From an uncultured Acidobacteriota bacterium (lineage in GTDB: Bacteria > Acidobacteriota > Thermoanaerobaculia > Multivoradales > JAHEKO01): a DNA stretch of 33,341 nucleotides. Every line of letters begins with the position of its first letter. Within the stretch, counting starts at the first letter, position 1. This document shows, in pieces, positions 354-26,236 of the stretch. Under the pieces are notes generated by a model that worked only from the letters and a program-made list of their open reading frames with translations, was not told where the DNA came from and searched no databases. Location: positions 1 through 33,341 of the forward strand of contig CAVQNG010000013.1 in the NCBI GenBank assembly GCA_963713825.1. Direction: 5' to 3'. The translations under genes and the position numbers were made by a program.

Positions 354-536
354 ATGAAGCGCTTTTCACTTGTTGTGGTGCTTGCTGTAATCGTACTACC
401 CGGGCTAGCCGGAGCAGAAACCTTCGACGACTGGAGCGCCTTTCAGGCAGCGGTCGCAGGCGATCTGACGCTCATCGATTTCGAGGGATTTGCTGCTGGC
501 GAAGGGCCCGAGGGAGCCCGGAGTCTCAACCTCTAG
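354..536 (+). CDS. Short secreted protein, probably a truncated cargo gene
   Basis: Sec signal peptide (MKRFSLVVVLAVIVLPGLAGA), purine-rich RBS region, downstream of a riboswitch; only 60 aa and stops 23 bp before the convergent CHAT gene. Confidence 0.55.
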   Translation: MKRFSLVVVLAVIVLPGLAGAETFDDWSAFQAAVAGDLTLIDFEGFAAGEGPEGARSLNL

Positions 537-559: not shown

Positions 560-3500
560 TCACCGCCAATCACCCACTGCCACAAATCCGGCCCAGAAAA
601 AGGGGTGAGTGCTCAAGCCTGCCTCTCGGCGACGCTGTAGTAGTTCGAGGCTTGCCAGGTGCACAGCGTCGCTCGTCGTTCGACTGTCGATGAAACGGCT
701 CTGGTAGAGGAGCTTCATCCACTCTCGTGTCGAATTGTCCTCGACCCGCCACAAGCTCATAATGAGGCTGTCGACGCCAGCCATTTGAAACGCCCGGCGA
801 AGCCCAAATACACCCTCTCCCGCCCACACTTCCCCCACTCCGGTTGCGCAGGCCGACAGCACTGCCCACTCCACTCCAGTGAGGTTGAGCGCCGCAATCT
901 CTTCAGCCGTGAGAATTCCGTCCTCTTCGCCCGGAGCCGCTGCGTCTCTGTGATTGGCTCCAGCCAGGGCCAAACCAGCCAAAAGGAGCGGATTCTCACC
1001 GACCTTCGACACACCACGGCCTGGAGCCTCCTCGGTACCCAGCGCCGAGCGGCACTCGCCTCCAAGGAAGAAGGCATGACTCGCGACGTGGATCACCCGT
1101 CTACCTCCTGACAGAGCCTTGAATGCTGCTTCGCTGGCCGCCGCTTCACTCAGGATTAGCACATGCTCGCTGGTAGGACGCCGGCCGGCACCTCGAGCGA
1201 TTGCGTCTTGCCATAGCTCGGCGATCTCGCGCAACTCCGGCCCTGTTGCCGGCAGCTCAGCGAACTCCAGGTCCTCGAAGCTTTCGCAGGCCGAGAGCGG
1301 CCCACGGTATGAGCCACCGGCCAGGTCATCGACGTTTGATGCCTCAGCCACGATGAGATCCGTTTGGGGTGCGAGGGCAGAGAAGAGACTAGTGTCGTTG
1401 AATGCCGGATCGCCAAGAGCCAACAAATCGTTGCCGTGCTCTGCCTTTGCGAAGCCAATGAGATCTCGTTCCGCCGACAGATAGTGGAGAATCGGGCCAC
1501 CTTCAATCAGATAGCCGCCATCCTCAGAAGGAAGCGCCGAGTAGTTGATGAGGCTTAGGGCGCCGTCAGGTACGACGAACAGAACCTCGAGGCCTTCTAC
1601 CTGCGACGCGACAGGATCCCAGACACGAGTCCGCAGTGATGCGGCGACGGACCGAAACTGTTTCTCTGCCTGTGCGGTGGCCCAAGCAGGAGTTCTTGAG
1701 ACGCCAGAGACCTGCCGCCGGAATTGCTGTACGAGGTGGTCGATATCGAGGGCTCTTCCCAGCGGGACGAGCGCTGGCTCTCCACCTCCGCTCCTGAGGA
1801 CGAAGGCTACATACCAAGCCTCGCCGGGACCCTCTTCTGTACCGCTCTCGCCGCCGAAAGCGGTGCGATGAAAGCGTGCCACACTGAGAAGTCCGGTCCC
1901 GGGGGGCAGATTCCCCTTCACCTCTTCCAAGCCAGAATCCTTGACCCTGAGTCGAGATCGAAATGAAGGACTGCTCTCCGCCAGTTTCCTCTCTGCCAGA
2001 TCTCGTTCATTACGAGCTTGGCGCAAGAGGGCTCGGTGTATTTCTGCCTGCTCTGGACCTTGAGACCCTTGCACTGCGAGGAAGGCCAATCTGTTGCGAG
2101 CCTCAGCCAGCTCCATCGCTTGAAGAGATACTTCAGAATTCGGATGTACCGAAGCCCATTTGTGGCGCTCCGCCATCTCATCCAGCACTATCGCCCTCGA
2201 GCGAATCAATGAATCGAAGGCCTTCTCTACTGGTCCAGGTCTCGCATCAGCAAGAAGTATCGAGAGGATGAGACTGAGCCCCGACTCGTGTGTCGCCGCG
2301 TAGTGCAGACCATGCCTCTCTGCAAGACCTGCGAGATTCTGGCGCAACTGCTCACGCAGAATCCTGTCGGCATGCAGAGCCGACCCCAGTGCCTCGTCGA
2401 GATTGCCGGTTCTCGCCAGACATTGGGCTACCTTCAGTTGACCCGCCAGGGCCCCGGGATTGTCCGGGCCCCACTCGTTGACGAGAATGGACACGGCTCT
2501 CCGATACAGAGGGAGAGCCTTCTGGAAGTCCCCCAGCTTCGCGCTCAGGTCCGCCAGCGAGTTCAAGTTAGACGCGACGCGATCCTTCTTGCTCCCAAAC
2601 GCCCTCTCATCGATCTCTAGAGCTCGCTCGAACGCCTTTCTGGCCCCTGAGAAATCCCCAAGCTCCATTAGGATCTCACCATGTTTTCTCAACCCTACAG
2701 CTACCTCCGGATGATTCTCATCCCAGAAGTTCTGCCGGATCGCAAGAGCGCGTTCCGTCAAGTCTTTCGCAGTGTTCAGGTCTCCTTCTTGAATCGAAAT
2801 TTCGGCGAGACCCAGTAGCGGATGGGTCATGGACTCGTGCTCAGCACCTAGGCTCTTGTCAATTATTGCCGCCGAACGTTCATAGGAACGTCGAGCCTGC
2901 TCGTACTCGCCCAGGTCTACTAGGAGGCTCGCCTGGTCATTGAGCGTCCACGCCAGCCATGGATGTTCCGTACCGAAGTGCTCCTCGATTACCGCTATCG
3001 CTCGCTCGCGGTACTGCCGAGAAGAACCAAGATCTCTCCGCGCCGCCAGCAGTGTGGCGTACATAGCGAAGGTGGCGGCGGAATTGGGTGACGGGTGGCG
3101 CTCGTGAATCGCAATGGCGCGCCGGTAGGTGTCCTCCGCCAGGTTCGGTTCGCCCATAAACCACAGTAGAAGAGCCAGATTATTCAACGAGTCAGCCAGC
3201 TTAGGGTGCTCGGGACCCAACACCTCTTCCCTGATGGCGACGGCCTGCTCCATCAAGGGTCGCGCCTCCTGGTACATGCCCAACTCCCACTTCAAGTAGC
3301 CCAAGCTGTGATAGCTCTGTGCTAGGTCTGGATGCCTGGGTTCCAGTTCCGCTTCTCGAATCGCGAGAGCCCGTTCGTAGAGAGCTTCGGCTTCTGCCTG
3401 ATCGCCGGAGGCGGCGAGGACGTTAGCAAGGCCATGAAGGGGAACCGTGACATCGAGGCTATCCGGACCGGATGCGATTTCGAAGATCTCAATTGCGTCT

Positions 3501-4093
3501 TCGTACTGTCTTTTCGCCTCTTCCAAACGGTTCGTCTGTCGATAGAGTCCCCCCAGATACTGGTGAATCAGCCCAACCCGTCGATCTGCGGATCCCACTG
3601 CTTCCTGGTAGATCCCGAGTGCACGCAGTTCAAGAGTCTCCACCGCCGAGAAGTCGCCTCTCTTTTCAAGAACTTTGGCCTTCTCAATCAGACTGTCGGC
3701 CACCAGCGGGTGGTTTGCCCCGAGGTCTTGCTCGCGAATTCGCAGAGCGCGATCCGCCAGCTCCAGGGGTTCGGCCTGACCGGCCTTTCCTCCGCGCCAG
3801 AGGGCTTCGACCAGAAGATCGAGAACCTCCGCTGTTTCTAGGGAGTCGCGCCCGTTATCGGCTTCGGTTCTGGTGAGCAATTCGCGAGCAGTGAGTTCCG
3901 CCGTCGCGTAGTCACCGGCTGCGATCAGACCTTGAACAGCCTTTGTGCTGGTCCTCTCTTGCAGCGAGAGGTTGCGGTCCTCGAGCCTGACCACATCTTG
4001 GACGGCCTCGGCGGGTGGAATCAACGCTGGCGCTGTGACGCTTCCTAGCAGAAGCGCACAGGCACGAGCTACTTTACGACTACACATGACCAT
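560..4093 (-). CDS. TPR-repeat CHAT-domain (caspase-like, clan CD) protease with predicted signal peptide
   Basis: About 12 kinesin-light-chain-type TPRs (LGPEHPKLADSLNNLA); CHAT motifs VVPDGAL, IHVASHAF (His), VLSACATG (Cys), SLWRVED, HPFFWAGF. RBS GGAGGT abuts ATG 4093, so the true start may be ATG 4087. Confidence 0.95.
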   Translation of the reverse strand: MVMCSRKVARACALLLGSVTAPALIPPAEAVQDVVRLEDRNLSLQERTSTKAVQGLIAAGDYATAELTARELLTRTEADNGRDSLETAEVLDLLVEALWRGGKAGQAEPLELADRALRIREQDLGANHPLVADSLIEKAKVLEKRGDFSAVETLELRALGIYQEAVGSADRRVGLIHQYLGGLYRQTNRLEEAKRQYEDAIEIFEIASGPDSLDVTVPLHGLANVLAASGDQAEAEALYERALAIREAELEPRHPDLAQSYHSLGYLKWELGMYQEARPLMEQAVAIREEVLGPEHPKLADSLNNLALLLWFMGEPNLAEDTYRRAIAIHERHPSPNSAATFAMYATLLAARRDLGSSRQYRERAIAVIEEHFGTEHPWLAWTLNDQASLLVDLGEYEQARRSYERSAAIIDKSLGAEHESMTHPLLGLAEISIQEGDLNTAKDLTERALAIRQNFWDENHPEVAVGLRKHGEILMELGDFSGARKAFERALEIDERAFGSKKDRVASNLNSLADLSAKLGDFQKALPLYRRAVSILVNEWGPDNPGALAGQLKVAQCLARTGNLDEALGSALHADRILREQLRQNLAGLAERHGLHYAATHESGLSLILSILLADARPGPVEKAFDSLIRSRAIVLDEMAERHKWASVHPNSEVSLQAMELAEARNRLAFLAVQGSQGPEQAEIHRALLRQARNERDLAERKLAESSPSFRSRLRVKDSGLEEVKGNLPPGTGLLSVARFHRTAFGGESGTEEGPGEAWYVAFVLRSGGGEPALVPLGRALDIDHLVQQFRRQVSGVSRTPAWATAQAEKQFRSVAASLRTRVWDPVASQVEGLEVLFVVPDGALSLINYSALPSEDGGYLIEGGPILHYLSAERDLIGFAKAEHGNDLLALGDPAFNDTSLFSALAPQTDLIVAEASNVDDLAGGSYRGPLSACESFEDLEFAELPATGPELREIAELWQDAIARGAGRRPTSEHVLILSEAAASEAAFKALSGGRRVIHVASHAFFLGGECRSALGTEEAPGRGVSKVGENPLLLAGLALAGANHRDAAAPGEEDGILTAEEIAALNLTGVEWAVLSACATGVGEVWAGEGVFGLRRAFQMAGVDSLIMSLWRVEDNSTREWMKLLYQSRFIDSRTTSDAVHLASLELLQRRREAGLSTHPFFWAGFVAVGDWR

Positions 4094-4141
4094 ACCTCCC
4101 GCCTAGCTCAACGGTTGGCTTGTCTGCTGACCCTCAAAGGG

Positions 4142-4873
4142 TCAGCGCGGAAGCCGCTCCAGCAGGGCGAGGGCTTCGGACTCCATCTCGCCCGCGAGGT
4201 CCACCACTGCTTCCAGCTCATCTCTGGCCGCCTGAACATGACCTGCTCGCAGAAGGGCCTTGGCCAGATAGAGGCGTGCTCTCTCGAGGTACGGTGTGGG
4301 GGCCAACGCGACAACGCGCCTGAAACTCTCGATCGCCGGCTCGGTCGCCCCTGTGTGGAGATAGCAGACCCCTAGAAAGAAGTGAGCTGTGGCGTCTGCG
4401 GGATCCTGTTGGGAGGCTGCCTCGAGTCCCGGAAGCGCACGCGAGTAGTTCCCGGCGGAATAGAGTTCCATGGCTTGTTGAAAGTGTGCCTCCGCCTGCC
4501 CCCCCGAACTTCTTAGCAGCGGGACCTCGTAAGGAGGTGGCTCAAACCAAGCCAGCTCTGCCAACTCGGTCCGGCCTAGACGCTCACCTTCCGATCGGGT
4601 CATCCAGAGAGTGACTCCCAACCCGACGATGAGCACCGCAGCAATCGCCATCTTCACCCAACGCTGAGCAATGAAGGTCACGAGCACGCCGCCTTCTGTC
4701 GAATCGGCAGATTCGATGACGGAATCTCGCAAGGCGACCAGCTGCTCTAACGCCGTCTGGCACTCTCGACAGTCGACCAAGTGGTCTTCAAAGGTCTCGG
4801 ACTCGCCCTCGGAGAGATTGCCAACAAAGTAGCTCTCCACCAACTCGTCATTCAGCTCTTGTAGACACGCCAT
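4142..4873 (-). CDS. Zinc-finger (zf-HC2/ZAS) anti-sigma factor with one TM helix and C-terminal TPRs
   Basis: FEDHLVDCRECQ (HxxxCxxC), TM WVKMAIAAVLIVGLGVTLWM, then TPR helices; directly downstream of the ECF gene. Start ATG 4873 or GTG 4885 (ORF track gives 4891). Confidence 0.9.
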   Translation of the reverse strand: MACLQELNDELVESYFVGNLSEGESETFEDHLVDCRECQTALEQLVALRDSVIESADSTEGGVLVTFIAQRWVKMAIAAVLIVGLGVTLWMTRSEGERLGRTELAELAWFEPPPYEVPLLRSSGGQAEAHFQQAMELYSAGNYSRALPGLEAASQQDPADATAHFFLGVCYLHTGATEPAIESFRRVVALAPTPYLERARLYLAKALLRAGHVQAARDELEAVVDLAGEMESEALALLERLPR

Positions 4874-4887
4874 CGGCCTGATCACTA

Positions 4888-5469
4888 TCAATAGTGCCCG
4901 TGCTTGCTAGTTTGTGACAGATCATCGAGATTCTTACGGGCTCTGCGCAGGGCACGGAGCTTTCGCTGGCGGGCCGCGGCCGGGCGAATACCGACGCGAT
5001 CTGCGATCTCCGAGAGGCTCAAGTCCTCAACCAGCCACAAGCGCAAGATCTCCTGGTCCCGGGGTTCTAATCGCGCCAGGCTGATTCTGGCTAGTTCCAG
5101 CAGCTCACCTCGTCCGCAATCCGATTCCGGGTCACCTTCGTCTCCAGTTGACTGGAAGGACTTCAGCCGATCGATGCGCTGCTCCCCGCGAAAGTGCGCT
5201 CGGATGATGTTTCGGATGGTCCCACCGACAAAGGCCGGCAACCTGTCCTCATCTCGAAGTCTGCCCTGGCGAAGGGCCTGAAGAACCTGAAGCATGGCTT
5301 CTTGCGCCAGGTCTTCAGCATCGACGACAGAATCCACTCGCACGAGTGCTATCAGATAGGCCGACCTCCGAAATCGGGAGACCAGCTCTTCCTCAGCCGC
5401 TCGATCGCCGCCGCGAATTCGGCCAGCGAGTGAGGACTCAACCGTGTCCGCTGTCCCAGCACTAGGCAC
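4888..5469 (-). CDS. ECF-type sigma-70 factor (sigma 1)
   Basis: 193 aa; region 2 (DAEDLAQEAMLQVL...FVGGTIRN) and region 4 HTH (LEPRDQEILRLWLVEDLSLSEIADRVGI). Confidence 0.93.
   Translation of the reverse strand: MPSAGTADTVESSLAGRIRGGDRAAEEELVSRFRRSAYLIALVRVDSVVDAEDLAQEAMLQVLQALRQGRLRDEDRLPAFVGGTIRNIIRAHFRGEQRIDRLKSFQSTGDEGDPESDCGRGELLELARISLARLEPRDQEILRLWLVEDLSLSEIADRVGIRPAAARQRKLRALRRARKNLDDLSQTSKHGHY
4893..4919 (-). promoter_or_regulatory. Putative ECF promoter inside the 3' end of sigma 1, facing the anti-sigma gene
   Basis: Minus strand TGTCAC-AAACTAGCAAGCACGGG(17)-CACT: same boxes and spacing as the leader copies, with an unrelated spacer. Confidence 0.65.
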
Positions 5470-5533: not shown

Positions 5534-5560
5534 TGTCACACATGCTCCTCTTGCGACACC
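5534..5560 (+). promoter_or_regulatory. Putative ECF promoter TGTCAC-N17-CACC
   Basis: Same boxes and 17-nt spacing with a different spacer, upstream of the truncated riboswitch. Confidence 0.6.
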
Positions 5561-5576
5561 TTCTAACTGAGAAGAA

Positions 5577-5608
5577 GCGCCTCGACAAAGGCACACCTGG
5601 GAAAACCT
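5577..5608 (+). ncRNA. Truncated c-di-GMP-I riboswitch (5' part only)
   Basis: GCGCCTCGACAAAGGCACACCTGGGAAAACC is identical to the 11923 and 13859 copies, then jumps directly to the RBS AAAGGAG. Confidence 0.7.
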
Positions 5609-5622
5609 GAAAGGAGACCGCA

Positions 5623-7041
5623 ATGGGACGAACCTCGAGACGAGTCAGCCTGGTGGCAATGTTGATCGTGCTGTTCGGCACTGTGGCCAGCAGCGCCAAC
5701 CTGATCAGCTATACCACGTGGTCAGCCAACCGTAATCGAGTCATGGTCATGGACGACACAGGGGCCAATCCTCTCGAAATCTACCTGGGCGTAAAGTTCT
5801 CACCTTATGGGCTGAATCACACAATCTCTCCCCAACGGTCAGACGGAACCTGGGTCGCCTTTCGGGACACAGACATCGATATGGGTACGGGATCTGCGCT
5901 CTATAAGGTCAAGGCCGACGGGTCGGGCTTCACCAAGGTGCTCTGCAGCAGCTACGACGGTGAGAGCGGAGTCCCTCACAGCTCCATATCTGGCTCTCGG
6001 TGGTCACCTGACGACCGCTGGATTGCTGTTCAAACGTACGAGGGCATTGCGCTGGTTTCGGTCGACTTCGAAGTGGGCTTGGGTGCCGTCGACGAGGCCT
6101 GCGCAGCACCGCTTCAGTTCATCTACCCGGACCCCGATTGGGACCCAGTCTGGGTCCTGGAGTCACGTGTGGCGTGGAACCTCGACGGGACCCAAATGGC
6201 ATTCATTGAGATCCTCAATTTCAGAGATCCGGACACCGAGCAGATTCGAATTGTCGTTCTCGAACGTCAGGAGATCGGTTGGAGGCGAGTGCGCGAGGTG
6301 TCGACCGATGTCGAGCTCTTCGGCAAGTGGCCGTGGTCTCTCGATTGGCAGCGCGGCGGGGATCTCCTGGTGATCCACACCCTTGAAGGCAGCGGACCGC
6401 AAGGAGTGTTCTGGATCAACTGGATCGATATCACCAACGGAGAGTGGGGATATGTCACTGCAGGCACAAGCCCGAGTTGGTCTCCGGACAACAACCATCT
6501 GCTCATCGTTGACGAAAGGGGAACGATCATCAAGTGGCTCTACCCGGAGGGGCCTGGAGAGGTCTTGGGCTCGGGAGAGTCCCCTGAGTGGCAGAGAGAC
6601 GAGCTGTCTTTCACCTGCGAGATTGATGCAGACTGCGACGACGGCAATCTGTGCACCGATGACGAGTGCGTCTCTGGCAATTGCAGCAACTCTCCCAACT
6701 TCCTGGTGTGTGACGATGGCAACGAGTGCACGGACTTCGATGGCTGTAATGAGGGTCTCTGTGTTGGACAGCCCATCTCCGACGGTACCCCTTGCGACGC
6801 TGGGTATTGCTGCGGTGTGATGTGTGTCGAGTTGGCTTGTGACATCGACAGCGACTGCGACGATGAAGATGCCTGTACGATCGACACTTGCGTCTTCGAT
6901 GCGGTCAATCCCTGCGCAACGCATTGCGAGTACGCACCCGATCCCGCTTGCCCAAGCTGCTTGCCGAAGGGCACACCGTGCGACCCGGAGATACCTTGCT
7001 GTTCGGGGATGTGTCACCCTGTCAAGGGAACGTGCAAGTAG
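5623..7041 (+). CDS. Secreted TolB/PD40-like beta-propeller protein with Cys/Asp-rich C-terminal repeats
   Basis: Signal peptide; WSPD motifs; CDDGNxCTxDxC repeats; ends CCSGMCHPVKGTCK; RBS AAAGGAG. Confidence 0.85.
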   Translation: MGRTSRRVSLVAMLIVLFGTVASSANLISYTTWSANRNRVMVMDDTGANPLEIYLGVKFSPYGLNHTISPQRSDGTWVAFRDTDIDMGTGSALYKVKADGSGFTKVLCSSYDGESGVPHSSISGSRWSPDDRWIAVQTYEGIALVSVDFEVGLGAVDEACAAPLQFIYPDPDWDPVWVLESRVAWNLDGTQMAFIEILNFRDPDTEQIRIVVLERQEIGWRRVREVSTDVELFGKWPWSLDWQRGGDLLVIHTLEGSGPQGVFWINWIDITNGEWGYVTAGTSPSWSPDNNHLLIVDERGTIIKWLYPEGPGEVLGSGESPEWQRDELSFTCEIDADCDDGNLCTDDECVSGNCSNSPNFLVCDDGNECTDFDGCNEGLCVGQPISDGTPCDAGYCCGVMCVELACDIDSDCDDEDACTIDTCVFDAVNPCATHCEYAPDPACPSCLPKGTPCDPEIPCCSGMCHPVKGTCK

Positions 7042-7136: not shown

Positions 7137-7222
7137 ACCTCGACAACGGTAAACCTGGTCAAAGCCAGGGACACAAAGCTACGGGTCTTACCTCATCGAG
7201 AAGATCGCCGGGCTGCCGAAGG
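7137..7222 (+). ncRNA. c-di-GMP-I riboswitch
   Basis: CCTCGACAACGGTAAACCTGGTCAAAGCCAGGGACACAAAGCTACGGGTCTT...AAGATCGCCGGGCTGCCGAAGG; C-G to U-A compensatory change at the base of P2. Confidence 0.85.
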
Positions 7223-8688: not shown

Positions 8689-8801
8689 GCGCCACGCAAA
8701 GGCACACCTGGGAAAACCCAGGGCCGCAAAGCCACGGTTCCTCGTCTCCTTCGCGACGGAGTCCCGCCACGAAGGACCCAAGACCGCCGGGCTGCCGAAG
8801 G
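8689..8801 (+). ncRNA. c-di-GMP-I riboswitch with an extra hairpin inserted in P3
   Basis: AAAGGCACACCTGGGAAAACCCAGGGCCGCAAAGCCACGG...AAGACCGCCGGGCTGCCGAAGG. Confidence 0.85.
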
Positions 8802-10103: not shown

Positions 10104-10212
10104 GCGCCTCGCAAGGGTAAACCTGGCCAAAGCCAGGGCCACAAAGCTACGGTCCTCGTCTCCTTCGTGACGGAACCCCGCCACGAAGGAAAGACCGCCG
10201 GGCTGCCGAAGG
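10104..10212 (+). ncRNA. c-di-GMP-I riboswitch with P3 hairpin insertion
   Basis: AAGGGTAAACCTGGCCAAAGCCAGGGCCACAAAGCTACGGTCCT...AAGACCGCCGGGCTGCCGAAGG; covarying P2. Confidence 0.85.
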
Positions 10213-11922: not shown

Positions 11923-12025
11923 GCGCCTCGACAAAGGCACACCTGGGAAAACCCAGGGCCGCAAAGCCACGGATCCTGAGTCTGGCTATTCCGCAGGGGA
12001 TCGGGACCGCCGGGTTGCCGAAAGG
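11923..12025 (+). ncRNA. c-di-GMP-I riboswitch
   Basis: GCCTCGACAAAGGCACACCTGGGAAAACCCAGGGCCGCAAAGCCACGGATCCT...GGGACCGCCGGGTTGCCGAAAGG. Confidence 0.85.
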
Positions 12026-13858: not shown

Positions 13859-13972
13859 GCGCCTCGACAAAGGCACACCTGGGAAAACCCAGGGCCGCAA
13901 AGCCACGGGTCCTCGTCTCCTTCGCGACGGAAATCCGCCACGAGGGACCCAAGACCGCCAGGCCGCCGAAGG
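13859..13972 (+). ncRNA. c-di-GMP-I riboswitch with P3 hairpin insertion
   Basis: 5' half identical to the 11923 copy; 3' end AAGACCGCCAGGCCGCCGAAGG. Confidence 0.8.
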
Positions 13973-17580: not shown

Positions 17581-17732
17581 GTGGTTCCACTGGATGCAGG
17601 CGACCCTGCTACCCATAGCAGAGGTCTCCGACGCATAGCCTTCTGGCTATGTCTCCTACCCGTCAAGAGGGGTTCCCAACCACCTCTTCGGGTATGTCGG
17701 TCTTGTCAGATCTCTGCTAACACAGCTGTACA

Positions 17733-17816
17733 GAGATAAAGGCAAACCTGTCGCGAGGCAGGGGCGCAAAGCCACGGGTCTGGGCAAGTCACTGCCGAGA
17801 TCGCCGGGCTGCCACG
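17733..17816 (+). ncRNA. c-di-GMP-I riboswitch upstream of sigma 2
   Basis: AAAGGCAAACCTGTC-GCGA-GGCAGGGGCGCAAAGCCACGGGTCT...AGATCGCCGGGCTGCC; canonical GNRA loop; P1 pairing is weak. Confidence 0.8.
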
Positions 17817-17871
17817 AGCGTCGCAAGTTGGTGGAGTCGAGCGACTCCGCCGCAGCGGGGAGTCTGTACGG

Positions 17872-18714
17872 ATGGGTGTGACCTCGAGGCTTATCGAGTG
17901 GGTTCCTGGTCTTCCAGCGAAGGAAATGGAAGAGGCCTGGGATCGCTTCCTGAGCGAATACGCCACCCTCATCCTCCAGGTCGTCCACCTCTTCGAGCGG
18001 GACCCGGACCGGGTCGATGATTGCTTCCTTTTCGTCTGCGAGCACCTGAAGAGAGATCGCCTCAGGAGGCTCCGGCGTTTCAAGGCTGATGGCACGGCGT
18101 CGTTTCCAACATGGCTCCGCGCCGTGGTGCGCAACCTCTGCCTCGACTGGCGCCGCCAGCGATTCGGTCGCCCTCGGATCTTCCGCTCGATTGCCCGCCT
18201 GCCCGAAGTGGATCAGGAGGTCTTCCGCTGCATCTACTTTCGAAAGCTGAGTGAAAACGAGACCCTGCATACGGTCAGGGCGCTCCACCCGGCCCTGGAT
18301 CGCGAAGAGCTCGCTGCGAGCCTTGTGCGCATTCGCGCCAGCCTCAGCCCGCACCAGTCGTGGCTGTTGGCCTCGCGCAATCCCTACGTGGAATCGCTGT
18401 CTCGGAACGCGGATGTCACCAAGGGAGACGCTCGGGAAGCGGAACTGCCCGATCCCGATCCGGATCCCGAGACCGAGGCATCGGGTCGAGAGTTTCTCCG
18501 TGCCCTTCGCCGGGCCATGGACGGCCTGCCATCAAAAGAAAGGTTGCTGCTGCGGCTTCGCTTCGAGCAGGAGCTGACCCTGGAGGAGATCGCGGAGCTG
18601 ATGCAGCTGGGCAGTGCGGTCAAGGCACAAAGATTCCTACAACAGGTGCTTTCGAAGACGAGAGAGCAACTCCTGATGCAGGGAATCGAGTCCTTGTCCG
18701 TGAAAGAGAAGTAG
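17872..18714 (+). CDS. ECF-type sigma-70 factor with a long insertion between regions 2 and 4 (sigma 2)
   Basis: AWDRFLSEY, SFPTWLRAVVRNLCLDWRR (region 2); LPSKERLLLRLRFEQELTLEEIAELM (region 4); 280 aa. Confidence 0.88.
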   Translation: MGVTSRLIEWVPGLPAKEMEEAWDRFLSEYATLILQVVHLFERDPDRVDDCFLFVCEHLKRDRLRRLRRFKADGTASFPTWLRAVVRNLCLDWRRQRFGRPRIFRSIARLPEVDQEVFRCIYFRKLSENETLHTVRALHPALDREELAASLVRIRASLSPHQSWLLASRNPYVESLSRNADVTKGDAREAELPDPDPDPETEASGREFLRALRRAMDGLPSKERLLLRLRFEQELTLEEIAELMQLGSAVKAQRFLQQVLSKTREQLLMQGIESLSVKEK

Positions 18715-18740
18715 CCGGGAGCGAAGACTCCGGGCCGGGT

Positions 18741-19499
18741 ATGAGCGAAATGATCGACGAATCGGACATCACCAGGCAGATTCCCCTCGTTGCGGGCTCG
18801 GGTAGTCGAAGAGGCGCACGCTGTCCGACACCGGGGCAGCTGGCGGCCTATGCCGACACACGACTGGATGCGACCGCGCGGGCAAGAGTGGAGGAGCACC
18901 TCGCCGATTGCACCTACTGCCTGGGGCAGGTCGGGTTTCTGGTTCGCGAGTCGCGAGAGACGGAGGCAACACCGCTACCTTCGCGCCTGATCGAGACGGC
19001 TCGCGAGAGGCCCACTCGTCGGTTGAGTCTCGTGCCGGTGCCGGCGCTGGCGGCGCTGGCGGCCACAGCCCTGCTGTTGGTCGTCGGATTCGTCTGGCAG
19101 CCGGACCGTGCCCTGGCTCCCTTCAGCCCGGCTGGTCCTGGAGCGGAGCGCTCTGGTCGAGCTTCCAGGAGAGTTCCGATGGATCGCACCGTCCGCAACG
19201 GAGGGTTGGCTGCGGTGGCGCCCCGGATCCTGCTGCCGATCGATGAGGAGGTCGTCCGTCAGCTCCCCATGGAGATCCGCTGGTCGAGCTCGCCCGGAGC
19301 CCTGCAGTACTCTGTCCAGGTGCTGAGCCTCGCCGGTGATTTGGTCTGGGAGGGCTCGAGCGCCGGGGAAGCGACCGTGGTTCCGTCGGACGTCGCACTC
19401 GAGCCAGGACAGAGGTACTACGTCTGGGTGGAAGCGCGGCTTCCCTCTGGCGACACCTCAAAGTCCGATGCCGTTGCCTTTCGCGTAGCTCCCGATTGA
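18741..19499 (+). CDS. zf-HC2 anti-sigma factor with one TM helix and a C-terminal Ig-like beta domain
   Basis: CPTPGQLAAYAD..VEEHLADCTYC; TM LAALAATALLLVVGFVW; IRWSSSPGALQYSVQV..LEPGQRYYVWVEA; start re-assigned to ATG 18741. Confidence 0.88.
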   Translation: MSEMIDESDITRQIPLVAGSGSRRGARCPTPGQLAAYADTRLDATARARVEEHLADCTYCLGQVGFLVRESRETEATPLPSRLIETARERPTRRLSLVPVPALAALAATALLLVVGFVWQPDRALAPFSPAGPGAERSGRASRRVPMDRTVRNGGLAAVAPRILLPIDEEVVRQLPMEIRWSSSPGALQYSVQVLSLAGDLVWEGSSAGEATVVPSDVALEPGQRYYVWVEARLPSGDTSKSDAVAFRVAPD

Positions 19500-19526: not shown

Positions 19527-22469
19527 ATGATTCCCCAGTACACCGTTTGGGTGCCCGTGATTTCGCTGGTGCTGACCTTGGCGCCGGGGATCCTCGCGGC
19601 CACGGAATCCGGAACAGCCGACGAGCTCCTGGCCCAGGCCCGAGAGCTCTATGTGCAAGAGGGGCCCGCGCAGGCCTTGCCGGTCTACGAGCGGGCCCTC
19701 GACCTCTTCCGCCAGGGGCAGGACCCGCTCGGTGAGGCGATCACCCTCGGCCTGATCGGCAACTGCCACAAACGACTCGGGGACTACGAGCGAGCCGGCG
19801 AGCTCCTGGAGCAAGCGCTCGCGATGAAGCGTCAGCTCGGCGACCGCCTCGAAGAGGGCAAGACCCTGAGCCACCTGGGCCTGCTCTCCTGGGAGCTCGC
19901 CCGATACGACACGGCGATCCTGTACTTCGACGAAGCGATTGCGATCGGCCAGGAGCTGGGCGATGCGCAGCTCGAAGGCTCGGCCCTCAATAATCTGAGT
20001 CTGGTTTACGACGAGCTGGGCGACTACGAGCGTAGTCTCGAACAGTACCGCAAGGCTCTGGAGCTCTACAGCCGCACCGACTTCCCGCGCGGCGAGAGCG
20101 ACACCCTCGGCAACATCGGAGGGGTCTATTACCTCCTGGGGCGGTATCGGGAGGCCATGGACTATTACAGGAAGGCCCTGGCCATCAGCGAGCAGCTGGA
20201 GTCGAAACCCTCCATGAGCCAGGACCTCGGCAACCTGGCGCTGTGTCACCTCGGCCTGGGTGAGGTCTCCGAAGCCCTGGAGCGATTCGACCAGGCCCTG
20301 TCCCTGGCCCGCGAGGCCGGGCTCGAAAAGGAGACCGCCGATTGGCTCAAGGGCAAGGGTGACGCCTACCACGACACCGGGCGTCACAGCGAGGGCCTGG
20401 AGCTCTACCGCCAGGCTCTCGAAGCCTACGAGTCCGCCAGCCTCAAGCGGGAGCTGGTCGAGGCCCTCAACGAGCTGGCCGCCCTGCACCTGAGCCTGGG
20501 CGATCTGGCCTCGGCCGAGGCCTACCAGCGGCAGGCACTCGAGCTGGCACGCTCCATTGGGTTCACGCGAGGCGGTGTGGCGAGCCTCAGGTCCCTGGGA
20601 GAGCTGGAATGGCGCCGCGAGCGCTACGAAGAGGCTGCGACCTTCCTTCGCGAAGCCCTTTCCGGGGCAGTCGACCTCGACGACCCGAACCTGGCCGCCT
20701 CGTGTAGGACACAGCTCGTGCTCACGTTGCGGGATCAGGGAAAGCTGGAGGAGGCAGTCGACCTGGCAGGTTCGAGCGCCGAGATCGCGCGCGACCTCGA
20801 ATCCAAGTTGCATAGGGCCGAAGCGCTCTATACGTTGGGTGACCTCGAGCTGCGGACAGGCGAGCCGAGCCGGGCGCTGGAGCATTTCCAGGAAGGCTCG
20901 GTTCTGATCATAGGTCTGGGGGAGCCGGAGATCGCCTGGCAGCTGGCCCACGGTCGGGGAAGGGCGCTGGAAGCGCTCGGCCGGGACGAGGAGGCCGTCG
21001 CTGCCTATCGGCAAGCCGTACAGCTCATCGAAACCGTCCGCGAACGTCTGCGCGAAGAGCGCTTTCGCTCTGGATATCTGGAAGACAAGCACGAAGTCTA
21101 CGTCGATCTGTCCCGACTCCTGGTAAGCCTGGATCGACCCGACGAGGCGTTCTCCTACGCCGAGAAGCTGAGGGCGCGGAGCTACCTCGATCTCTTGTCC
21201 GATGCGCCGATACCGAGGCTCACCGGCGAACAGAAGCGTCGGGAGCTGGAGCTTCGCCAACGCATCCGGGGTCTGCAGCGGAGCCTGGGTGAGGAGGCTG
21301 CGTCAGAGTTCGAGCCCCGCCTACGAGCGATGGAGGCCTTCGCCGCCGAGCTCGAGCAGGCCGAGCGGGAATACGAGGACTTCCTCGCCGGCCTCCGGGA
21401 TGTGGATGCCGATCTTGCGGCCACCTGGTCGTTGTCGGTGCCCGCGGCGGAGGAGATCCGCCAGGCGCTACCGACACATACGGCCCTGGTGGAGTTCGTG
21501 GTTGGCAGGGATCAGGTCCTGGTCTTTCTGTTGTGCCGCGAGCGGTTCGAAACCCTCGTCGCACCGCTGAATCGCAAGGACCTGAGGGCCAAGGTCGAGC
21601 TGACGCGACAACTGATCCAGAAGCGCGGCGGCTCCGACTGGCGCTATCCGGCCGCCAGCCTCGCCCAGGCCCTGATCGAGCCCATGGAAGCGCGGGGGTG
21701 GCTGGAGGGGGTGCGCAACCTTTACCTGGTCCCACACGACAGCCTGCACTATCTACCCTTCGCGGTGCTACCGCGGGGGTCCGAAGGGAGACTTCTGGTC
21801 GAGGACTATCGGCTCACGTACCTGCCTTCTGCGGGAACCCTTGTGCTTGCGAAAGCGGGTGATCGACGCGAGGAAGACCTCCTGGCGATGGCACCTCAGA
21901 GCAGTCGCCTTCGCTATTCGGAGACCGAGGTGCGCGCCGTGGCCGAGGCCTTTCCGGCGAGCCACAGGGTCCTGGTCGGAGAGCAGGCCACGGAGAGCTC
22001 CTTCAAGACGCTCTCCAAGGACTTCAGGGTGCTGCACCTGGCGACCCACAGCACCTGGAATCGACTGAATCCGCTGCTCTCCGCGCTGCAGCTGGAAGCG
22101 GGCGAGGGCGAGGACGGCCGGCTCGAGGTCCACGAGATCCTCGACCTGTCGTTGGGCGCCGATCTGGTGACCCTGAGCGCCTGCGAAACCGCCCTCGGTA
22201 GCGGCTATTTCGGAGAAACGCCGGTCGGCGACGACTTCGTCGGACTGACCCGGGCCTTCCTCCATGCGGGCAGCCGCACCGTGTTGGCCAGCTTGTGGGA
22301 GGTCGATGATCGATCGACGCTGGAGCTCATGCGGAGCTTCTACCAGCACCGGGATGAGCGGGGTCCTGCCTCGGCCCTGGCCGAAGCCCAGCGTTCGAAA
22401 CTGGCGGGCCCGACCGCGGCAGACCCTTACCAGTGGGCCGCGTTCGTGGTCGTGGGGCCGTCACCATGA
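19527..22469 (+). CDS. TPR-repeat CHAT-domain protease with predicted signal peptide
   Basis: Signal peptide; about 11 TPRs; LVPHDSLHYLPF, LHLATHS (His), TLSACET (Cys), ASLWEVDD, PYQWAAF. Confidence 0.95.
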   Translation: MIPQYTVWVPVISLVLTLAPGILAATESGTADELLAQARELYVQEGPAQALPVYERALDLFRQGQDPLGEAITLGLIGNCHKRLGDYERAGELLEQALAMKRQLGDRLEEGKTLSHLGLLSWELARYDTAILYFDEAIAIGQELGDAQLEGSALNNLSLVYDELGDYERSLEQYRKALELYSRTDFPRGESDTLGNIGGVYYLLGRYREAMDYYRKALAISEQLESKPSMSQDLGNLALCHLGLGEVSEALERFDQALSLAREAGLEKETADWLKGKGDAYHDTGRHSEGLELYRQALEAYESASLKRELVEALNELAALHLSLGDLASAEAYQRQALELARSIGFTRGGVASLRSLGELEWRRERYEEAATFLREALSGAVDLDDPNLAASCRTQLVLTLRDQGKLEEAVDLAGSSAEIARDLESKLHRAEALYTLGDLELRTGEPSRALEHFQEGSVLIIGLGEPEIAWQLAHGRGRALEALGRDEEAVAAYRQAVQLIETVRERLREERFRSGYLEDKHEVYVDLSRLLVSLDRPDEAFSYAEKLRARSYLDLLSDAPIPRLTGEQKRRELELRQRIRGLQRSLGEEAASEFEPRLRAMEAFAAELEQAEREYEDFLAGLRDVDADLAATWSLSVPAAEEIRQALPTHTALVEFVVGRDQVLVFLLCRERFETLVAPLNRKDLRAKVELTRQLIQKRGGSDWRYPAASLAQALIEPMEARGWLEGVRNLYLVPHDSLHYLPFAVLPRGSEGRLLVEDYRLTYLPSAGTLVLAKAGDRREEDLLAMAPQSSRLRYSETEVRAVAEAFPASHRVLVGEQATESSFKTLSKDFRVLHLATHSTWNRLNPLLSALQLEAGEGEDGRLEVHEILDLSLGADLVTLSACETALGSGYFGETPVGDDFVGLTRAFLHAGSRTVLASLWEVDDRSTLELMRSFYQHRDERGPASALAEAQRSKLAGPTAADPYQWAAFVVVGPSP

Positions 22470-22567: not shown

Positions 22568-24451
22568 ATGACACGGAGAGACTCGACACTCTACTTGTTC
22601 CCCAAGGCTCTACTTCTTCTGATCGGTGTGCTACTGCTGAGCTCGCCATCCTTCGCTCAGGATCCGATCCCGACCGCGGCCGACCCCTCTTCGGCCGAGC
22701 AGGAGACCTTCGATTTGGAGGTCACGGTTACCGGTGACAACTTCAGCAAGGACTCGGAAGTCCGATTCCTGCGCACCGGAACTGAAGACCCAGGGGGCAT
22801 CCATGTCAAGAACGTCAAGGCCCAGGGTCCGAAGACCCTCAAGGTCCTCATTGACGTTTCAGCGGAAGCGACGGTTGACGATTTCGACATCGAGGTCATG
22901 AGCCGCGGCCGCACCGGCAAGGGCACCGAGCTGTTCCGTGTCCTCGAGAAGAGCACCGGATCGGACTCGACTCCACCGGGCGAGATTTTCGACCTGAGGG
23001 TGGTCGATTCGACCTACTGGAGCGTCACGCTGGAGTGGACGATGCCCGCCGACGATGGCTTCGATGCAAGCAGTGGACCGGTCCAGACCTGCTATCTCAA
23101 GTGCGCACCGCCTGGTGAGCCGCTCGTGAGCTGCCGTTGTGCCGGCAGCTTCCTGGAGGATCCCTACTCCTGGGGGAATCCGTGGTCGACCCAGGTTTGT
23201 CAAGCCTACCGGGATGCCGAGTTCCCCCTGCTCCAGGACACGGAGTATGTCTTCGCGGTCGCCTGTAGGGACGAGAACATGTTCAATGTCAGTGAGTACG
23301 TCGAGGTGTCGGGCGGAAGAACGAGCTCATTCAGCGAAGTGCAGAGCACCGAGTGGAGGAGCCAGGAGGTACCCGCGGCTCTCGACGTCAGTCTCGGTCA
23401 CGCGTTCGACCTCGACGGCGACCCGCTCATCGTCGGGATCTTCAACGGCAGCACTCGGATTGTGAGGGGTACCTGGAACGGCTCTTCGTGGGCCTGGAGT
23501 CCTCCAGAGGATCTCGCCACCTCTTCCGGAGCTTTCGCGATGGATCCTTGGGGTCAGCCTGCGTTCGCTGGGGTGGAGACCGTCGGCCGCCAGCAGGAAG
23601 GCGTTATCTACACTTATTTCGACGGCTCTGGCTGGACTGCGGAGCTCGTCTCCTCCCTGGGGCGAAAGGTCCGGCCAGCAGCACTGGCCATTGCGTTCGA
23701 CCCGACCTCCGGGGAGCCGGTGATCGCTTATAGCACGGTGGGCGATCGCAGTGGCGATCAGCTCTATCTGGCCAGGCGAACTTCGAGTGACAGCTGGGAA
23801 ATCGAGGCAATCGTTGCGGGCGCGTTTCGCGACATTTCACTCGCTTTCAGCGCCGCAGGCGAGCCGGGCGTGGCCTATGGTTGGTATATCGACGAGTACT
23901 CACAGCCGGATATCATCGATGTTGCGGTAAAGCGCACGGATGGCTGGATCCACGAAACGGTGACGCCAAGCAATACCTACAACTGGGGATATTTCCAGTT
24001 GGAAAGTGGGCCGGGGTCTGACGACTTGTGGCTCGCCTCCGATTCCGGTCTCTGCGAGCGTCACTTGCCCGGGGATTGGGTCTGCGAAAGGCGAGAGTTC
24101 AACAATTGGGGCGCGCCCTGGTTTGCGGTCGATAGCGAAGGACAGGCTCTCGCTGCGACTCGGGGTGCGGCACCCAGGGAACCGGGCTTGACGCTCCTCA
24201 GCCGCGACCCGGTGAGCTTGGAGTGGTCGGTCGAGTATGTCGATCATTATCAGCAGTACGCTTGGCCGAGCGGGCCTCCAGCCTGGGATCAACTGCACCT
24301 TGGCCTGACTTCCAGTGCTTTGCCCGCAGGAACTCCGTTCCTTCCGAACTCGCCGACCCTGTCGTGGGCGTGGAATGTGTGCGCTGAATCGTATTGCGAG
24401 TCCAACTTCGCGGAATACCACCTCTACTTCGCCTGGAAGGAGACTCCCTAG
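22568..24451 (+). CDS. Secreted protein with Ig/IPT-like, fibronectin-III and beta-propeller-like regions
   Basis: Signal peptide after AGGAGG; VTVTGDNF; DSTPPGEIFDL..SVTLEWTMPADDG (Fn3); EPVIAYS..LYLARR. Confidence 0.8.
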   Translation: MTRRDSTLYLFPKALLLLIGVLLLSSPSFAQDPIPTAADPSSAEQETFDLEVTVTGDNFSKDSEVRFLRTGTEDPGGIHVKNVKAQGPKTLKVLIDVSAEATVDDFDIEVMSRGRTGKGTELFRVLEKSTGSDSTPPGEIFDLRVVDSTYWSVTLEWTMPADDGFDASSGPVQTCYLKCAPPGEPLVSCRCAGSFLEDPYSWGNPWSTQVCQAYRDAEFPLLQDTEYVFAVACRDENMFNVSEYVEVSGGRTSSFSEVQSTEWRSQEVPAALDVSLGHAFDLDGDPLIVGIFNGSTRIVRGTWNGSSWAWSPPEDLATSSGAFAMDPWGQPAFAGVETVGRQQEGVIYTYFDGSGWTAELVSSLGRKVRPAALAIAFDPTSGEPVIAYSTVGDRSGDQLYLARRTSSDSWEIEAIVAGAFRDISLAFSAAGEPGVAYGWYIDEYSQPDIIDVAVKRTDGWIHETVTPSNTYNWGYFQLESGPGSDDLWLASDSGLCERHLPGDWVCERREFNNWGAPWFAVDSEGQALAATRGAAPREPGLTLLSRDPVSLEWSVEYVDHYQQYAWPSGPPAWDQLHLGLTSSALPAGTPFLPNSPTLSWAWNVCAESYCESNFAEYHLYFAWKETP

Positions 24452-24545: not shown

Positions 24546-24672
24546 CCGAAGGTCTCACTCGCGGGAGACCTCCGAAGCCTGCAGGTCCAAACGCCCTCGA
24601 CCGAAGGTCTGATGATCCCGGCCACTCACCAGGTGATCGAAGCCTGATTGGCGAGTGGGTGAAGTCGAAGGC

Positions 24673-24734
24673 GTGTCCGTGTAGTCAGGTAGGAGATGCC
24701 CATGATGGGTTTGTTTCCGCCTCGACGAGGGCAC
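24673..24734 (+). other. Eroded remnant of the promoter/riboswitch leader
   Basis: GTGTCCGTGTAG (24673) and CGCCTCGACGAGGGCACA (24718) match parts of the repeated leader. Confidence 0.5.
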
Positions 24735-24835
24735 AAATGGTTGGCCGAAGAGTTCCACCTACGGCGCTACAGGTCGAAACTTTGTTGCCGCTGACGTGGG
24801 GATCTCGGGTCCAGCAAGACGAAAGGAGAGTTGTG

Positions 24836-26236
24836 ATGAGAGTCGCCTCGGGAAGTGCGTTTTGGTGTGTAGTGCTGAGCCTCGTTTGCACCGCCGCCTG
24901 GGCGGCGGAGCCTGCGGTCGTCTTTGTCGACGACGCGCGGGTAGGAGCCAAATCCATCATGGTGATGGATGTCGATGGTGCCAATCGCACGGAAGTCTTT
25001 CGAACCGCAAAGCGATATGGAGACGGAGCCGGTGGCCCATGGCTCAGTCCTTCGATCTCACCGGATGGCCAGTGGGTCGCCTACGTCTACGAGGAAGGTG
25101 ACGAGGGCCCGGGCTGGGCCGTCTGGAAGACGACTAGTGCGGGAAGCCCTCCGCAGATGCTGCTCTGCAGCAGTGGACCAGACGGTGTTGTGGTCCTGGA
25201 GACACCCCAGTGGTCGCCGGATGGAACCGAGATCGCCGCCGTGAGAAGAGACTTTCTCAATGGTTTTCAATCCGTCGTCATCATCCCGGCGGATGGGCTT
25301 CAGTGTGGCATCGAGCAGCCGGAGGTCGTGTACTCCTCTGCCGGGGGTGGCTTGAGCCCGGGTGTCACCTGGAGTCCCGACGGTGCAAATCTCGCCGTCC
25401 TGGAATCAGACGACAACGGTGTCGACCTTCTGACGGTCGTACCGCGTTGGGGCGGAGGAGCGCTCACCTATCAGGTCGTCTGGCCGGCGGAATTCCTCGA
25501 CGGGCTGCTGTACAGGGAGCCCCATGCCCTGGACTGGCAGCGGGCCGGCAGCCTGGTCTTCGCTCTGGACACCTATTCGGAGAGCGCCGCCGAGCGGGTC
25601 GATACGGTGTGGTTGCTCCAGGTGATGGGAACCACCGCAATCGCCACGCCGATCGGCGAAGGGCAGTCGCCGACGTGGGCCCCCGACGATTCCCAGCTTC
25701 TCTTTGCTGGTCCCCAGGGTCTCACGAGAGTCACGTTCCCTGGGGGAGGAACCGAGTTTCTCGGCTCGGGTAGCGATCCCGACTGGAAGCGTGGGGCGCT
25801 GGCTGTCTGCGGGGACGGGAGCTGCGAAGGCGCTGAAGGCCCGTGCAATTGCCCGGCTGACTGCGATGATCCACCCTCCACCGAGACGTCATGCACGGAC
25901 TTTGCCGACAACGACTGCGACACGTTCGTCGACTGCGACGACACCGACTGCTCGGTCGACCCGGTCTGTGCGGTGCCCTACTGTGGCGACGGGTTCTGTG
26001 ACGAGGACGAGAGCTCATGCACTTGTGCCGAAGATTGTGGAGCGCCGCTCACGGTAGAGTCCGACTGCAGTGACGGTCTGGACAACGACTGCGACGATGC
26101 GATCGACTGTGATGACCTGGACTGCAGCGATGACGAGAGCTGCGCTTCCGGCGGCGGCAATCCCGGAGATCCCTGCACCAGCGGTGCCGATTGTCTCTCC
26201 GGCCTCTGCCATCCGGTGAAGCACACCTGCAAATAG
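24836..26236 (+). CDS. Secreted TolB/PD40-like protein with Cys/Asp-rich repeats; paralog of 5623-7041
   Basis: ATG 24836 after AAAGGAG; signal peptide; ISPDGQWVAY, WSPDG, LDWQR; CGDGxC and DNDCD repeats; ends CLSGLCHPVKHTCK. Confidence 0.85.
   Translation: MRVASGSAFWCVVLSLVCTAAWAAEPAVVFVDDARVGAKSIMVMDVDGANRTEVFRTAKRYGDGAGGPWLSPSISPDGQWVAYVYEEGDEGPGWAVWKTTSAGSPPQMLLCSSGPDGVVVLETPQWSPDGTEIAAVRRDFLNGFQSVVIIPADGLQCGIEQPEVVYSSAGGGLSPGVTWSPDGANLAVLESDDNGVDLLTVVPRWGGGALTYQVVWPAEFLDGLLYREPHALDWQRAGSLVFALDTYSESAAERVDTVWLLQVMGTTAIATPIGEGQSPTWAPDDSQLLFAGPQGLTRVTFPGGGTEFLGSGSDPDWKRGALAVCGDGSCEGAEGPCNCPADCDDPPSTETSCTDFADNDCDTFVDCDDTDCSVDPVCAVPYCGDGFCDEDESSCTCAEDCGAPLTVESDCSDGLDNDCDDAIDCDDLDCSDDESCASGGGNPGDPCTSGADCLSGLCHPVKHTCK

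Follow-up and report, generated by a model that had tools for sequence, protein, structure and literature searches.

Near the start of a 33,341-nucleotide stretch of DNA from an uncultured Acidobacteriota bacterium (assembly GCA_963713825.1, contig CAVQNG010000013.1; this whole stretch is referred to here as the window, and positions are counted along it) lies a three-gene locus. The question it raises is whether a caspase-like protease of the TPR-CHAT type acts on the membrane-bound anti-sigma factor encoded directly upstream of it, so that a sigma factor of the extracytoplasmic function (ECF) type is set free. The locus consists of minus-strand open reading frames (ORFs) arranged head to tail, with the sigma factor gene (5469-4888) followed by the anti-sigma gene and then by the TPR-CHAT gene (4093-560). 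Domain anatomy, conserved synteny and a promoter-like motif are what the computation shows. The published account of DdvA from Myxococcus xanthus describes a single polypeptide in which an anti-sigma factor with a zinc-binding anti-sigma (ZAS) domain and a transmembrane (TM) helix is fused to a periplasmic TPR-CHAT part of ~900 residues carrying a His/Cys dyad (PMC11506125). Our leading hypothesis, which we hold tentatively, is that the window locus is a split version of such a DdvS/DdvA-type ECF switch, with CHAT as the site-1 protease.

The first gene encodes a group 4 ECF sigma factor of 193 residues (4888..5469, minus strand) and starts at a GTG codon with GGAGGG 8 nucleotides (nt) upstream. 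The protein matches Sigma70_r2 (7.3e-9) and Sigma70 r4 (4e-8) in Pfam as well as the NCBIfam family sigma70-ECF (TIGR02937; 73.2 bits versus a cut-off of 42.9), and it contains the sigma-2 and sigma-4 domains only, at close to the ~200 residues expected of this group. The gaps between the sigma, anti-sigma and CHAT genes measure 14 and 48 nt. Because all three genes share one strand, lie this close together and show no terminator-like site between them, their co-transcription is plausible. The triad proposed by a first-pass annotation of this DNA, consisting of an ECF sigma factor, a zinc-motif/TM/TPR anti-sigma factor and a TPR-CHAT protein, was thus recovered with the ORFs and Pfam.

The anti-sigma ORF is listed as 4142-4891 from a TTG codon; since all 23 aligned family members begin with M-x-C, we place the start at the ATG at 4873. 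The resulting protein of 243 residues (4142..4873, minus strand; mean predicted local distance difference test score (pLDDT) of 85.3 in the AlphaFold2 (AF2) model) comprises a cytoplasmic zinc-motif domain, one TM helix, a juxtamembrane motif and an ectodomain of three TPRs. The ZAS-type motif C3...H31-x3-C35-x2-C38 (4760..4867, minus strand) does not vary among the 23 aligned family members, and the surrounding helices (9-17, 22-34 and 36-58 in the model) identify a class I ZAS domain, for which the Pfam zf-HC2 match stays below threshold (17 bits versus a cut-off of 22.2). The single hydrophobic segment in the hydropathy profile, modelled as a helix, is the TM segment (residues 68-93; 4595..4672, minus strand). 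Beyond it, the family alignment reveals an extracytoplasmic motif, LAWFEPPPYEVPLLRS (residues 107-122; 4508..4555, minus strand), in which R121 is invariant, and the TPR ectodomain then covers residues 126-240 (4154..4498, minus strand; Pfam TPR_16, 1.1e-13) with six helices at a pLDDT of 97-98. The motif, a PPY...LR segment, is modelled as non-helical at a pLDDT of 85-94 directly ahead of the TPRs, and it may serve in recognition or cleavage, or may just belong to the fold. The annotated order of a cytoplasmic zinc finger, one TM helix and an extracytoplasmic TPR domain therefore agrees with the invariant Cys/His motif, hydropathy, model and TPR_16 match. Judging by the adjacency of the genes, the protein would sequester its cognate sigma factor.

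An anti-sigma factor of this kind could also work as a cytoplasmic redox or zinc sensor in the manner of RsrA, with thiol oxidation freeing the sigma factor and the periplasmic parts uninvolved. The invariance of the C...HxxxCxxC motif would suit such a sensor, and the account of DdvA mentions a possible second input based on reactive oxygen species (PMC11506125). A sensor acting purely in the cytoplasm would, however, have no use for a TM helix or for a conserved ectodomain that carries an invariant motif. Many anti-sigma factors with a ZAS motif are not redox sensors, which likewise counts against this explanation, and we consider it very unlikely.

The third gene encodes a TPR-CHAT protein of 1177 residues (560..4093, minus strand), which matches TPR_12 (E 4.8e-74) and, over residues 816-1175, CHAT (PF12770, E 1.5e-57) in Pfam. 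Its AF2 model, built from a 35-sequence alignment (mean pLDDT 81.7, predicted template modelling score 0.75), is disordered over residues 1-40 and continues with a TPR superhelix (residues 44-590; 2324..3964, minus strand), a helical linker (592-727) and the caspase-like CHAT domain (residues 733-1177; 563..1897, minus strand). Both catalytic residues named in the first-pass annotation, the His of IHVASH and the Cys of LSAC, are present as H1006 (1076-1078) and C1082 (848-850); together with H1002 they are invariant across 35 of 35 homologues. The dyad, the PF12770 match and fold matches to separase and Csx29 in combination assign the domain to the CHAT/clan CD caspase-like proteases, so that it is a putative protease. 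Two further, non-catalytic cysteines, C936 and C1014, are also invariant in all 35 homologues, and a conserved disulfide between them would fit an extracytoplasmic protein.

Structural comparison places the model among caspase-like proteases. Foldseek ranks separase first (9hn0_B, E 3.7e-14) and also lists DdvA (8rot_A, E 2e-11) and Csx29 (8eey_B, 2.3e-9). With VIA-align, residues 339-1177 superpose onto the whole of Csx29 (7y9x_B; Z 25.6, 570 residues aligned) and residues 615-1177 onto the separase protease domain (5fby_A; Z 21.7, root-mean-square deviation 3.4, 321 residues aligned); DdvA is not among the best 50 VIA-align entries, though Foldseek lists it. Searches of the PDB sequences gave no significant match for the CHAT domain alone (phmmer) and generic TPR matches only for the full-length protein and for profiles A1 and A2. 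The N-terminal TPRs resemble peptide-binding TPR receptors in VIA-align (APPBP2, Z 38.3; phage Rap/NprR, Z 23-27), and on the strength of the model the superhelix is likely a protein or peptide sensor.

For CHAT to meet the ectodomain it would have to leave the cytoplasm, and by its sequence it is probably exported to the periplasm. The N-terminus (residues 1-30; 4004..4093, minus strand; MVMCSRKVARACALLLGSVTAPALIPPAEA) resembles a Sec signal, being basic at its start and hydrophobic in its core, with an AEA motif; it is disordered in the model, and signal-like N-termini are also found in the paralogous TPR-CHAT copies of the same genome. Of the signal peptide claimed earlier, the Sec-like N-terminus and its recurrence in paralogues stand, the call itself having been made by eye and with a crude heuristic by which 24 of the 35 family members are positive, one of these doubtfully. 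If CHAT were instead cytoplasmic and cut a cytoplasmic target, as Craspase cuts Csx30, the match of its fold to Csx29 would be accounted for and the heuristic signal call would mislead. The recurring signal-like N-termini of the paralogues and the conserved TPR part of the anti-sigma factor outside the membrane argue otherwise, as does the lack of Cas7-11, CRISPR or defence genes: PADLOC returned generic TPR matches only for the 19 proteins of the window, with no cas or defence match, and no CRISPR-related Rfam match was found in the window. These searches agree with the description of the locus as CRISPR-free, and we regard a cytoplasmic CHAT as highly improbable.

In order to see how consistently CHAT is tied to this pair of regulators, we searched the ORF set of the genome (5.4 Mb, 38 contigs) with BLAST. 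Pfam finds CHAT 11 times in the genome, and every one of these matches belongs to one of ten loci in which sigma and anti-sigma genes immediately precede it; six of the loci we call type 1 and four type 2. Type-1 loci are found on contigs C13 (the window locus), C3, C7, C8, C28 and, fragmented, C15, with ~40% identity to the window locus. The type-2 loci, with a 280-residue sigma factor and a 980-residue CHAT protein, are located on C13 (17872-22469), C14, C16 and, again fragmented, C15. The copies on C3 and C7 are nearly identical and may represent a single locus assembled twice. The C3 anti-sigma gene (C3:255448-256263) ends in a shifted frame, and both C15 triads (L005 1541-5904 and 14884-19558) are broken into several ORF pieces, one CHAT piece containing a TGA codon; these cases are either decaying paralogues or assembly errors.

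Outside this genome the CHAT family is large, with at least 3840 matches. We analyzed 80 CHAT loci from species-representative genomes, mostly of Acidobacteriota and some of Eisenbacteria, Krumholzibacteriota and Rokubacteria, using sigma and anti-sigma profiles that were built from the proteins of our own genome and are accordingly narrow. Where at least 1900 nt of upstream sequence were available (70 loci), sigma and anti-sigma genes lie directly upstream on the same strand in 17 cases and a sigma gene only in 4; of all 80 loci, 46 contain a sigma match at some place, several with intervening genes and many in divergent orientation. Across the 17 triads the pairwise identities of sigma factor, anti-sigma factor and CHAT correlate (r 0.80-0.85), which fits inheritance of the triad as a unit but is no proof of contact. 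The distribution of the anti-sigma family is patchy. Among close relatives, 3 of 41 genomes carry it at E <= 1e-20, our own included. Across the phylum it is present in at least 31 of 301 sampled genomes and at least 22 of 187 genera; in this phylum-wide sample nine candidates were scored per genome, so that its counts are lower bounds, and the 31 include our own genome and one unpublished genome (G087). At two of the loci further genes sit between the anti-sigma and CHAT genes, namely one for a CarboxypepD_reg outer-membrane barrel in L019 (2615-5860) and those for an SH3 outer-membrane barrel and a subtilase in L022 (3353-5786).

Contact between CHAT and the anti-sigma factor was addressed by complex prediction for CHAT residues 330-1177 together with anti-sigma residues 93-243. 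The pair scored 0.56 (0.56, 0.57 and 0.55 in the individual runs) versus 0.03 for the best of three controls, the runs shared at least 84% of their contacts, and the pLDDT of the partner was at least 83. Of 157 solved complexes 116 reach the mark used, as do 2 of 215 mismatched pairs; 18 of the 157 solved complexes and both passing mismatches do so with scores at or below 0.60. These benchmark counts hold only roughly for a prediction that, like ours, used its own alignments. The comparison of CHAT with the anti-sigma ectodomain is thus a weak pass. It may partly reflect likeness to the fused DdvA, whose TPR-CHAT part is reported to have been solved as a dimer (PMC11506125; PDB 8ROT, 8RW5).

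The authors of that work propose that a cue induces CHAT to cleave the linker in trans, as site 1, before RseP acts (PMC11506125). An RseP-like M50 site-2 protease is encoded in our genome as well (PF02163, 225.8 bits, G000:C3:1471191-1472414). In the order of events that we infer for the window locus, the zinc-motif domain of the anti-sigma factor would hold the sigma factor at the membrane, with its 3-TPR ectodomain and the separately exported TPR-CHAT protein sharing the periplasm. The array of 13 TPRs would read a periplasmic protein or peptide cue and activate CHAT, which would then cut the anti-sigma factor outside the membrane (site 1), and the RseP-type protease of the genome would cut the TM helix (site 2). 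The freed sigma factor would transcribe the divergent gene for a PD40/Cys-rich protein, and probably the neighbouring genes for secreted proteins, from GTCAC-N16-CnAC promoters. For the ligand-gated site-1 protease put forward in the first-pass annotation there are thus the anatomy, the logic of the system, the co-occurrence of the genes (11 matches in ten loci) and the RseP-type protease, whereas the cutting itself is a step that we infer.

Several observations weigh against a site-1 role of CHAT. The complex prediction gives it limited backing. Among the homologues, 11 of 35 lack a signal-like N-terminus by the crude heuristic, and 49 of the 70 CHAT loci have neither a sigma nor an anti-sigma gene directly upstream as far as the narrow profiles reach. 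In the window copy the catalytic His is followed by Ala1007, a position that is Gly in 33 of 35 homologues, and the catalytic Cys by Ala1083, a position that is Asp or Glu in 33 of 35; because these alanines directly adjoin both catalytic residues, the activity of this copy may be altered. On the substrate side, only ~7 residues lead from the TM helix to the next helix, in contrast to the variable Pro/Ala/Ser-rich linkers of up to ~60 residues that orthologous anti-sigma factors show in the alignment, and since the PPY...LR segment is modelled as ordered (pLDDT 85-94), the window protein appears to offer no obviously free linker. None of 12 long matches to the anti-sigma profile carries PF12770, so that fused anti-sigma::CHAT relatives were not seen among them, which is weak evidence. 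Finally, the site-1 role is unproven even for DdvA: according to the published account, dyad mutants had no phenotype under the tested conditions, no autocleavage of DdvA was seen, and validation of the CHAT role has to wait until the cue has been identified (PMC11506125).

Some of the same evidence would be explained if the TPR-CHAT protein were a co-receptor or steric shield. It would bind the ectodomain, rebuild a DdvA-like bulk non-covalently and keep RseP out until a cue made it leave or cut itself, whereupon RseP or a general protease would remove the anti-sigma factor. DdvA lends itself to this explanation, as its bulky TPR-CHAT part is described as blocking RseP, a DdvA variant without that part is removed in an RseP-dependent manner, and the dyad mutants behave like the wild type (PMC11506125). 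The weak support for binding (0.56 versus 0.03), the atypical alanine beside both catalytic residues and the ordered juxtamembrane motif of the anti-sigma factor would also be in keeping with it. Invariance of the dyad in 35 of 35 homologues, on the other hand, argues that catalysis matters in the family, and we take a shield to be a possible, if rather unlikely, account; cleavage by CHAT at site 1 remains the reading we prefer.

What such a switch might control is suggested by the genes that face it. Divergent from the triad lies the gene for a secreted protein of 472 residues (5623..7041, plus strand) with weak PD40 beta-propeller matches and C-terminal Cys-rich repeats, which is the predicted target of the sigma factor. 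Its paralogues adjoin all six type-1 triads (four of them in tandem on C8), relatives are found beside the triads in L010, L012 and L044, and in other species 8 of 10 genes lying divergent upstream of triads encode beta-propeller repeat proteins (PD40 6, Kelch 1, FG-GAP 1). The regions between sigma gene and divergent gene share the motif [TG]GTCAC[GA]-N15-C[ACT][AT]C[TC], located ~55-90 nt ahead of the start codon; in the window it reads GTCAC-N16-ACACCT (5535..5561, plus strand) and points towards the divergent gene. The strict motif has 43 matches genome-wide. In 13 cases it is intergenic and followed by an ORF, and 11 of these 13 lie ahead of genes for secreted proteins on triad contigs. 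That every type-1 triad faces genes for secreted PD40/Cys-rich proteins with a GTCAC-N16-CnAC motif is a new observation, and the sigma factor of the triad would be the reader of this motif.

We also considered that WWYGTGAC, which lies upstream of the sigma genes, might be a -35 element for their autoregulation. This was rejected, since repeated copies are conserved only on the other side, and three of the C8 tandem paralogues carry the motif with a terminator before them and away from any sigma gene. Together with a genome search, these observations show the motif to be directed towards the divergent and secreted-protein genes. In most sigma operons a TAnAAT box can be read by eye 25-45 nt ahead of the start, though it is weak in the window copy; this suggests housekeeping-type transcription of these operons and not autoregulation.

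The constant company of secreted repeat proteins admits another explanation, in which CHAT is itself an output: a secreted protease for other envelope or foreign proteins, for example the neighbouring PD40/Cys-rich ones, that merely rides in the sigma operon. The many CHAT loci without sigma or anti-sigma genes directly upstream would be expected under it, and so would the barrel or subtilase genes between anti-sigma and CHAT in L019 and L022, which recall what is described for ECF54 (Huang 2015, as quoted in the supplement of Casas-Pastor 2021). Yet if the sigma operons carry a housekeeping-type -10 box and not the GTCAC motif, as they seem to by eye, then CHAT would not be controlled by its own sigma factor. 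In addition, CHAT follows the anti-sigma gene at 10 of 10 loci of the genome, and the complex prediction, weak as it is, passed with all controls at or below 0.03. We therefore judge an effector role unlikely, and continue with CHAT as the candidate site-1 enzyme.

A second layer of control is suggested by riboswitches. The plus strand of the window holds seven c-di-GMP-I or c-di-GMP-I-GGC aptamers for cyclic di-GMP (c-di-GMP) above the Rfam gathering threshold (45.5-68.1 bits), at 221-306, 7139-7221, 8691-8799, 10106-10210, 11927-12023, 13862-13970 and 17732-17817. Most of them occupy the leaders of genes for secreted PD40, FG-GAP or PKD proteins, and those at 8691, 10106, 11927 and 13862 have a GTCAC-N16-CnAC motif ~46 nt upstream. 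The last aptamer, of the c-di-GMP-I-GGC type, ends 55 nt before the sigma gene of the second triad of the window, which is of type 2 and lies on the plus strand (sigma factor 17872-18714, anti-sigma factor ~18711-19499, CHAT 19527-22469). An aptamer directly before the sigma gene is found in all four type-2 triads (also L006 3913-3998, L007 2398-2484 and L005 14775-14860). The presence of seven c-di-GMP-I riboswitches in the window, one of them directly before the sigma gene of the second triad, is likewise new here. The leader of the 5623 gene (5575-5608, plus strand) keeps only the first ~30 nt of an aptamer, followed at once by a ribosome-binding site, and has the look of a promoter-riboswitch cassette that has decayed.

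Type-2 triads are followed by the gene for a secreted protein of 627-770 residues without a clear family (22568-24451, plus strand, in the window; C14:8750-10927; C16:7208-9526), the last ~150 residues of which resemble the C-terminus of the PD40/TolB-like protein encoded at 24659-26236 (plus strand). At the other end of the window, an ORF of 60 residues with a signal-like N-terminus (354-536, plus strand) lies behind the 221-306 riboswitch and runs towards the CHAT gene, whose 3' end it faces. The idea that it encodes a conserved peptide partner was dropped, since the genome holds no paralogue of it; it may be what is left of a gene, or it may encode a small peptide that is secreted.

All of this might be drawn together into one joint reading, in which the genome holds ten insulated, paralogue-expanded periplasmic caspase switches (six of type 1, four of type 2), each exported TPR-CHAT protein being the site-1 enzyme for its own anti-sigma factor. 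The outputs would be gated both by an outside cue, through the GTCAC-N16-CnAC promoter, and by c-di-GMP, through the leader riboswitch; with a riboswitch before the sigma gene, how sensitive the type-2 switches are would be set by the level of the second messenger. Taken as a whole, this reading is doubtful.

RseA/DegS/RseP and RsiW/PrsW/RasP are the classical cases of regulated intramembrane proteolysis of anti-sigma factors. The window locus is like them in having a single-pass anti-sigma factor, with an M50 protease in the genome, and in the proposed order of cuts, the first extracytoplasmic and the second made by the M50 protease. It differs at site 1, where the classical systems use a shared serine or metalloprotease; for the window a module-specific, caspase-like enzyme of clan CD encoded in the same operon is proposed. 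Craspase, in which Cas7-11/Csx29 cuts Csx30 and RpoE is the sigma factor, shares with the window the TPR-CHAT fold (Z 22-26 over residues ~331-1177) and the pairing of a caspase-like protease with an ECF-type sigma factor. Craspase is, however, bound to Cas7-11, while the window has no cas genes, a predicted exported protease and a membrane anti-sigma factor as partner. The parallel to Craspase drawn in the first-pass annotation thus gives way to a closer precedent in DdvS/DdvA, Craspase being cytoplasmic and RNA-guided.

ECF54 of Actinobacteria is the only ECF group with CHAT neighbours mentioned in the part of the Casas-Pastor 2021 supplement considered here, and no anti-sigma factor is given for it (Huang 2015, as quoted there). 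As in the window, an ECF sigma factor is conserved beside CHAT/TPR proteins, and L019 and L022 share with ECF54 the CarboxypepD_reg barrel or subtilase. ECF54 belongs to another phylum, however, and has no recognisable anti-sigma factor in that description, whereas in the window a ZAS/TM/TPR anti-sigma factor is encoded between the sigma factor and CHAT. A published split form of a DdvA-like protein was not found in the literature, of which the Casas-Pastor 2021 supplement may describe further CHAT-linked ECF groups.

With DdvS/DdvA the window locus has most in common, as far as that system is described (PMC11506125, PMC6061681): an ECF sigma factor adjoins a single-pass anti-sigma factor with a ZAS motif, a TPR-CHAT part with a His/Cys dyad lies on the periplasmic side in DdvA and would do so in the window if exported as predicted, and an RseP-type site-2 protease is available. 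The promoters are laid out in the same style, GTAA-N16-CGT for DdvS and GTCAC-N16-CnAC in the window. The likeness to DdvA is at the level of the fold only, as seen with Foldseek, with no match at the sequence level. DdvA is one polypeptide, while the TPR-CHAT protein of the window has a gene of its own, set apart by a stop codon and 48 nt, and its own signal-like N-terminus; unlike DdvA, the anti-sigma factor has an ectodomain of only three TPRs. The regulon of CBASS (cyclic-oligonucleotide-based antiphage signalling system) and CRISPR genes seen with DdvA is lacking in the window, where the neighbours are secreted beta-propeller/Cys-rich proteins and c-di-GMP riboswitches, and the locus further differs in its 6 + 4 paralogous copies per genome. 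DdvA-like proteins are reported in the account cited only from Myxococcota and one Comamonas (PMC11506125); with the anti-sigma family in at least 31 of 301 genomes of another phylum, the design would be wider than that. The riboswitches suggest that an envelope proteolytic switch is here joined to second-messenger control, and the predicted target promoter could serve to report release of the sigma factor. For DdvA a site-1 role of CHAT is unproven because the cue is unknown and enzyme and substrate form one chain; in the natural split form they are two proteins, whose binding and cleavage in trans are directly assayable.

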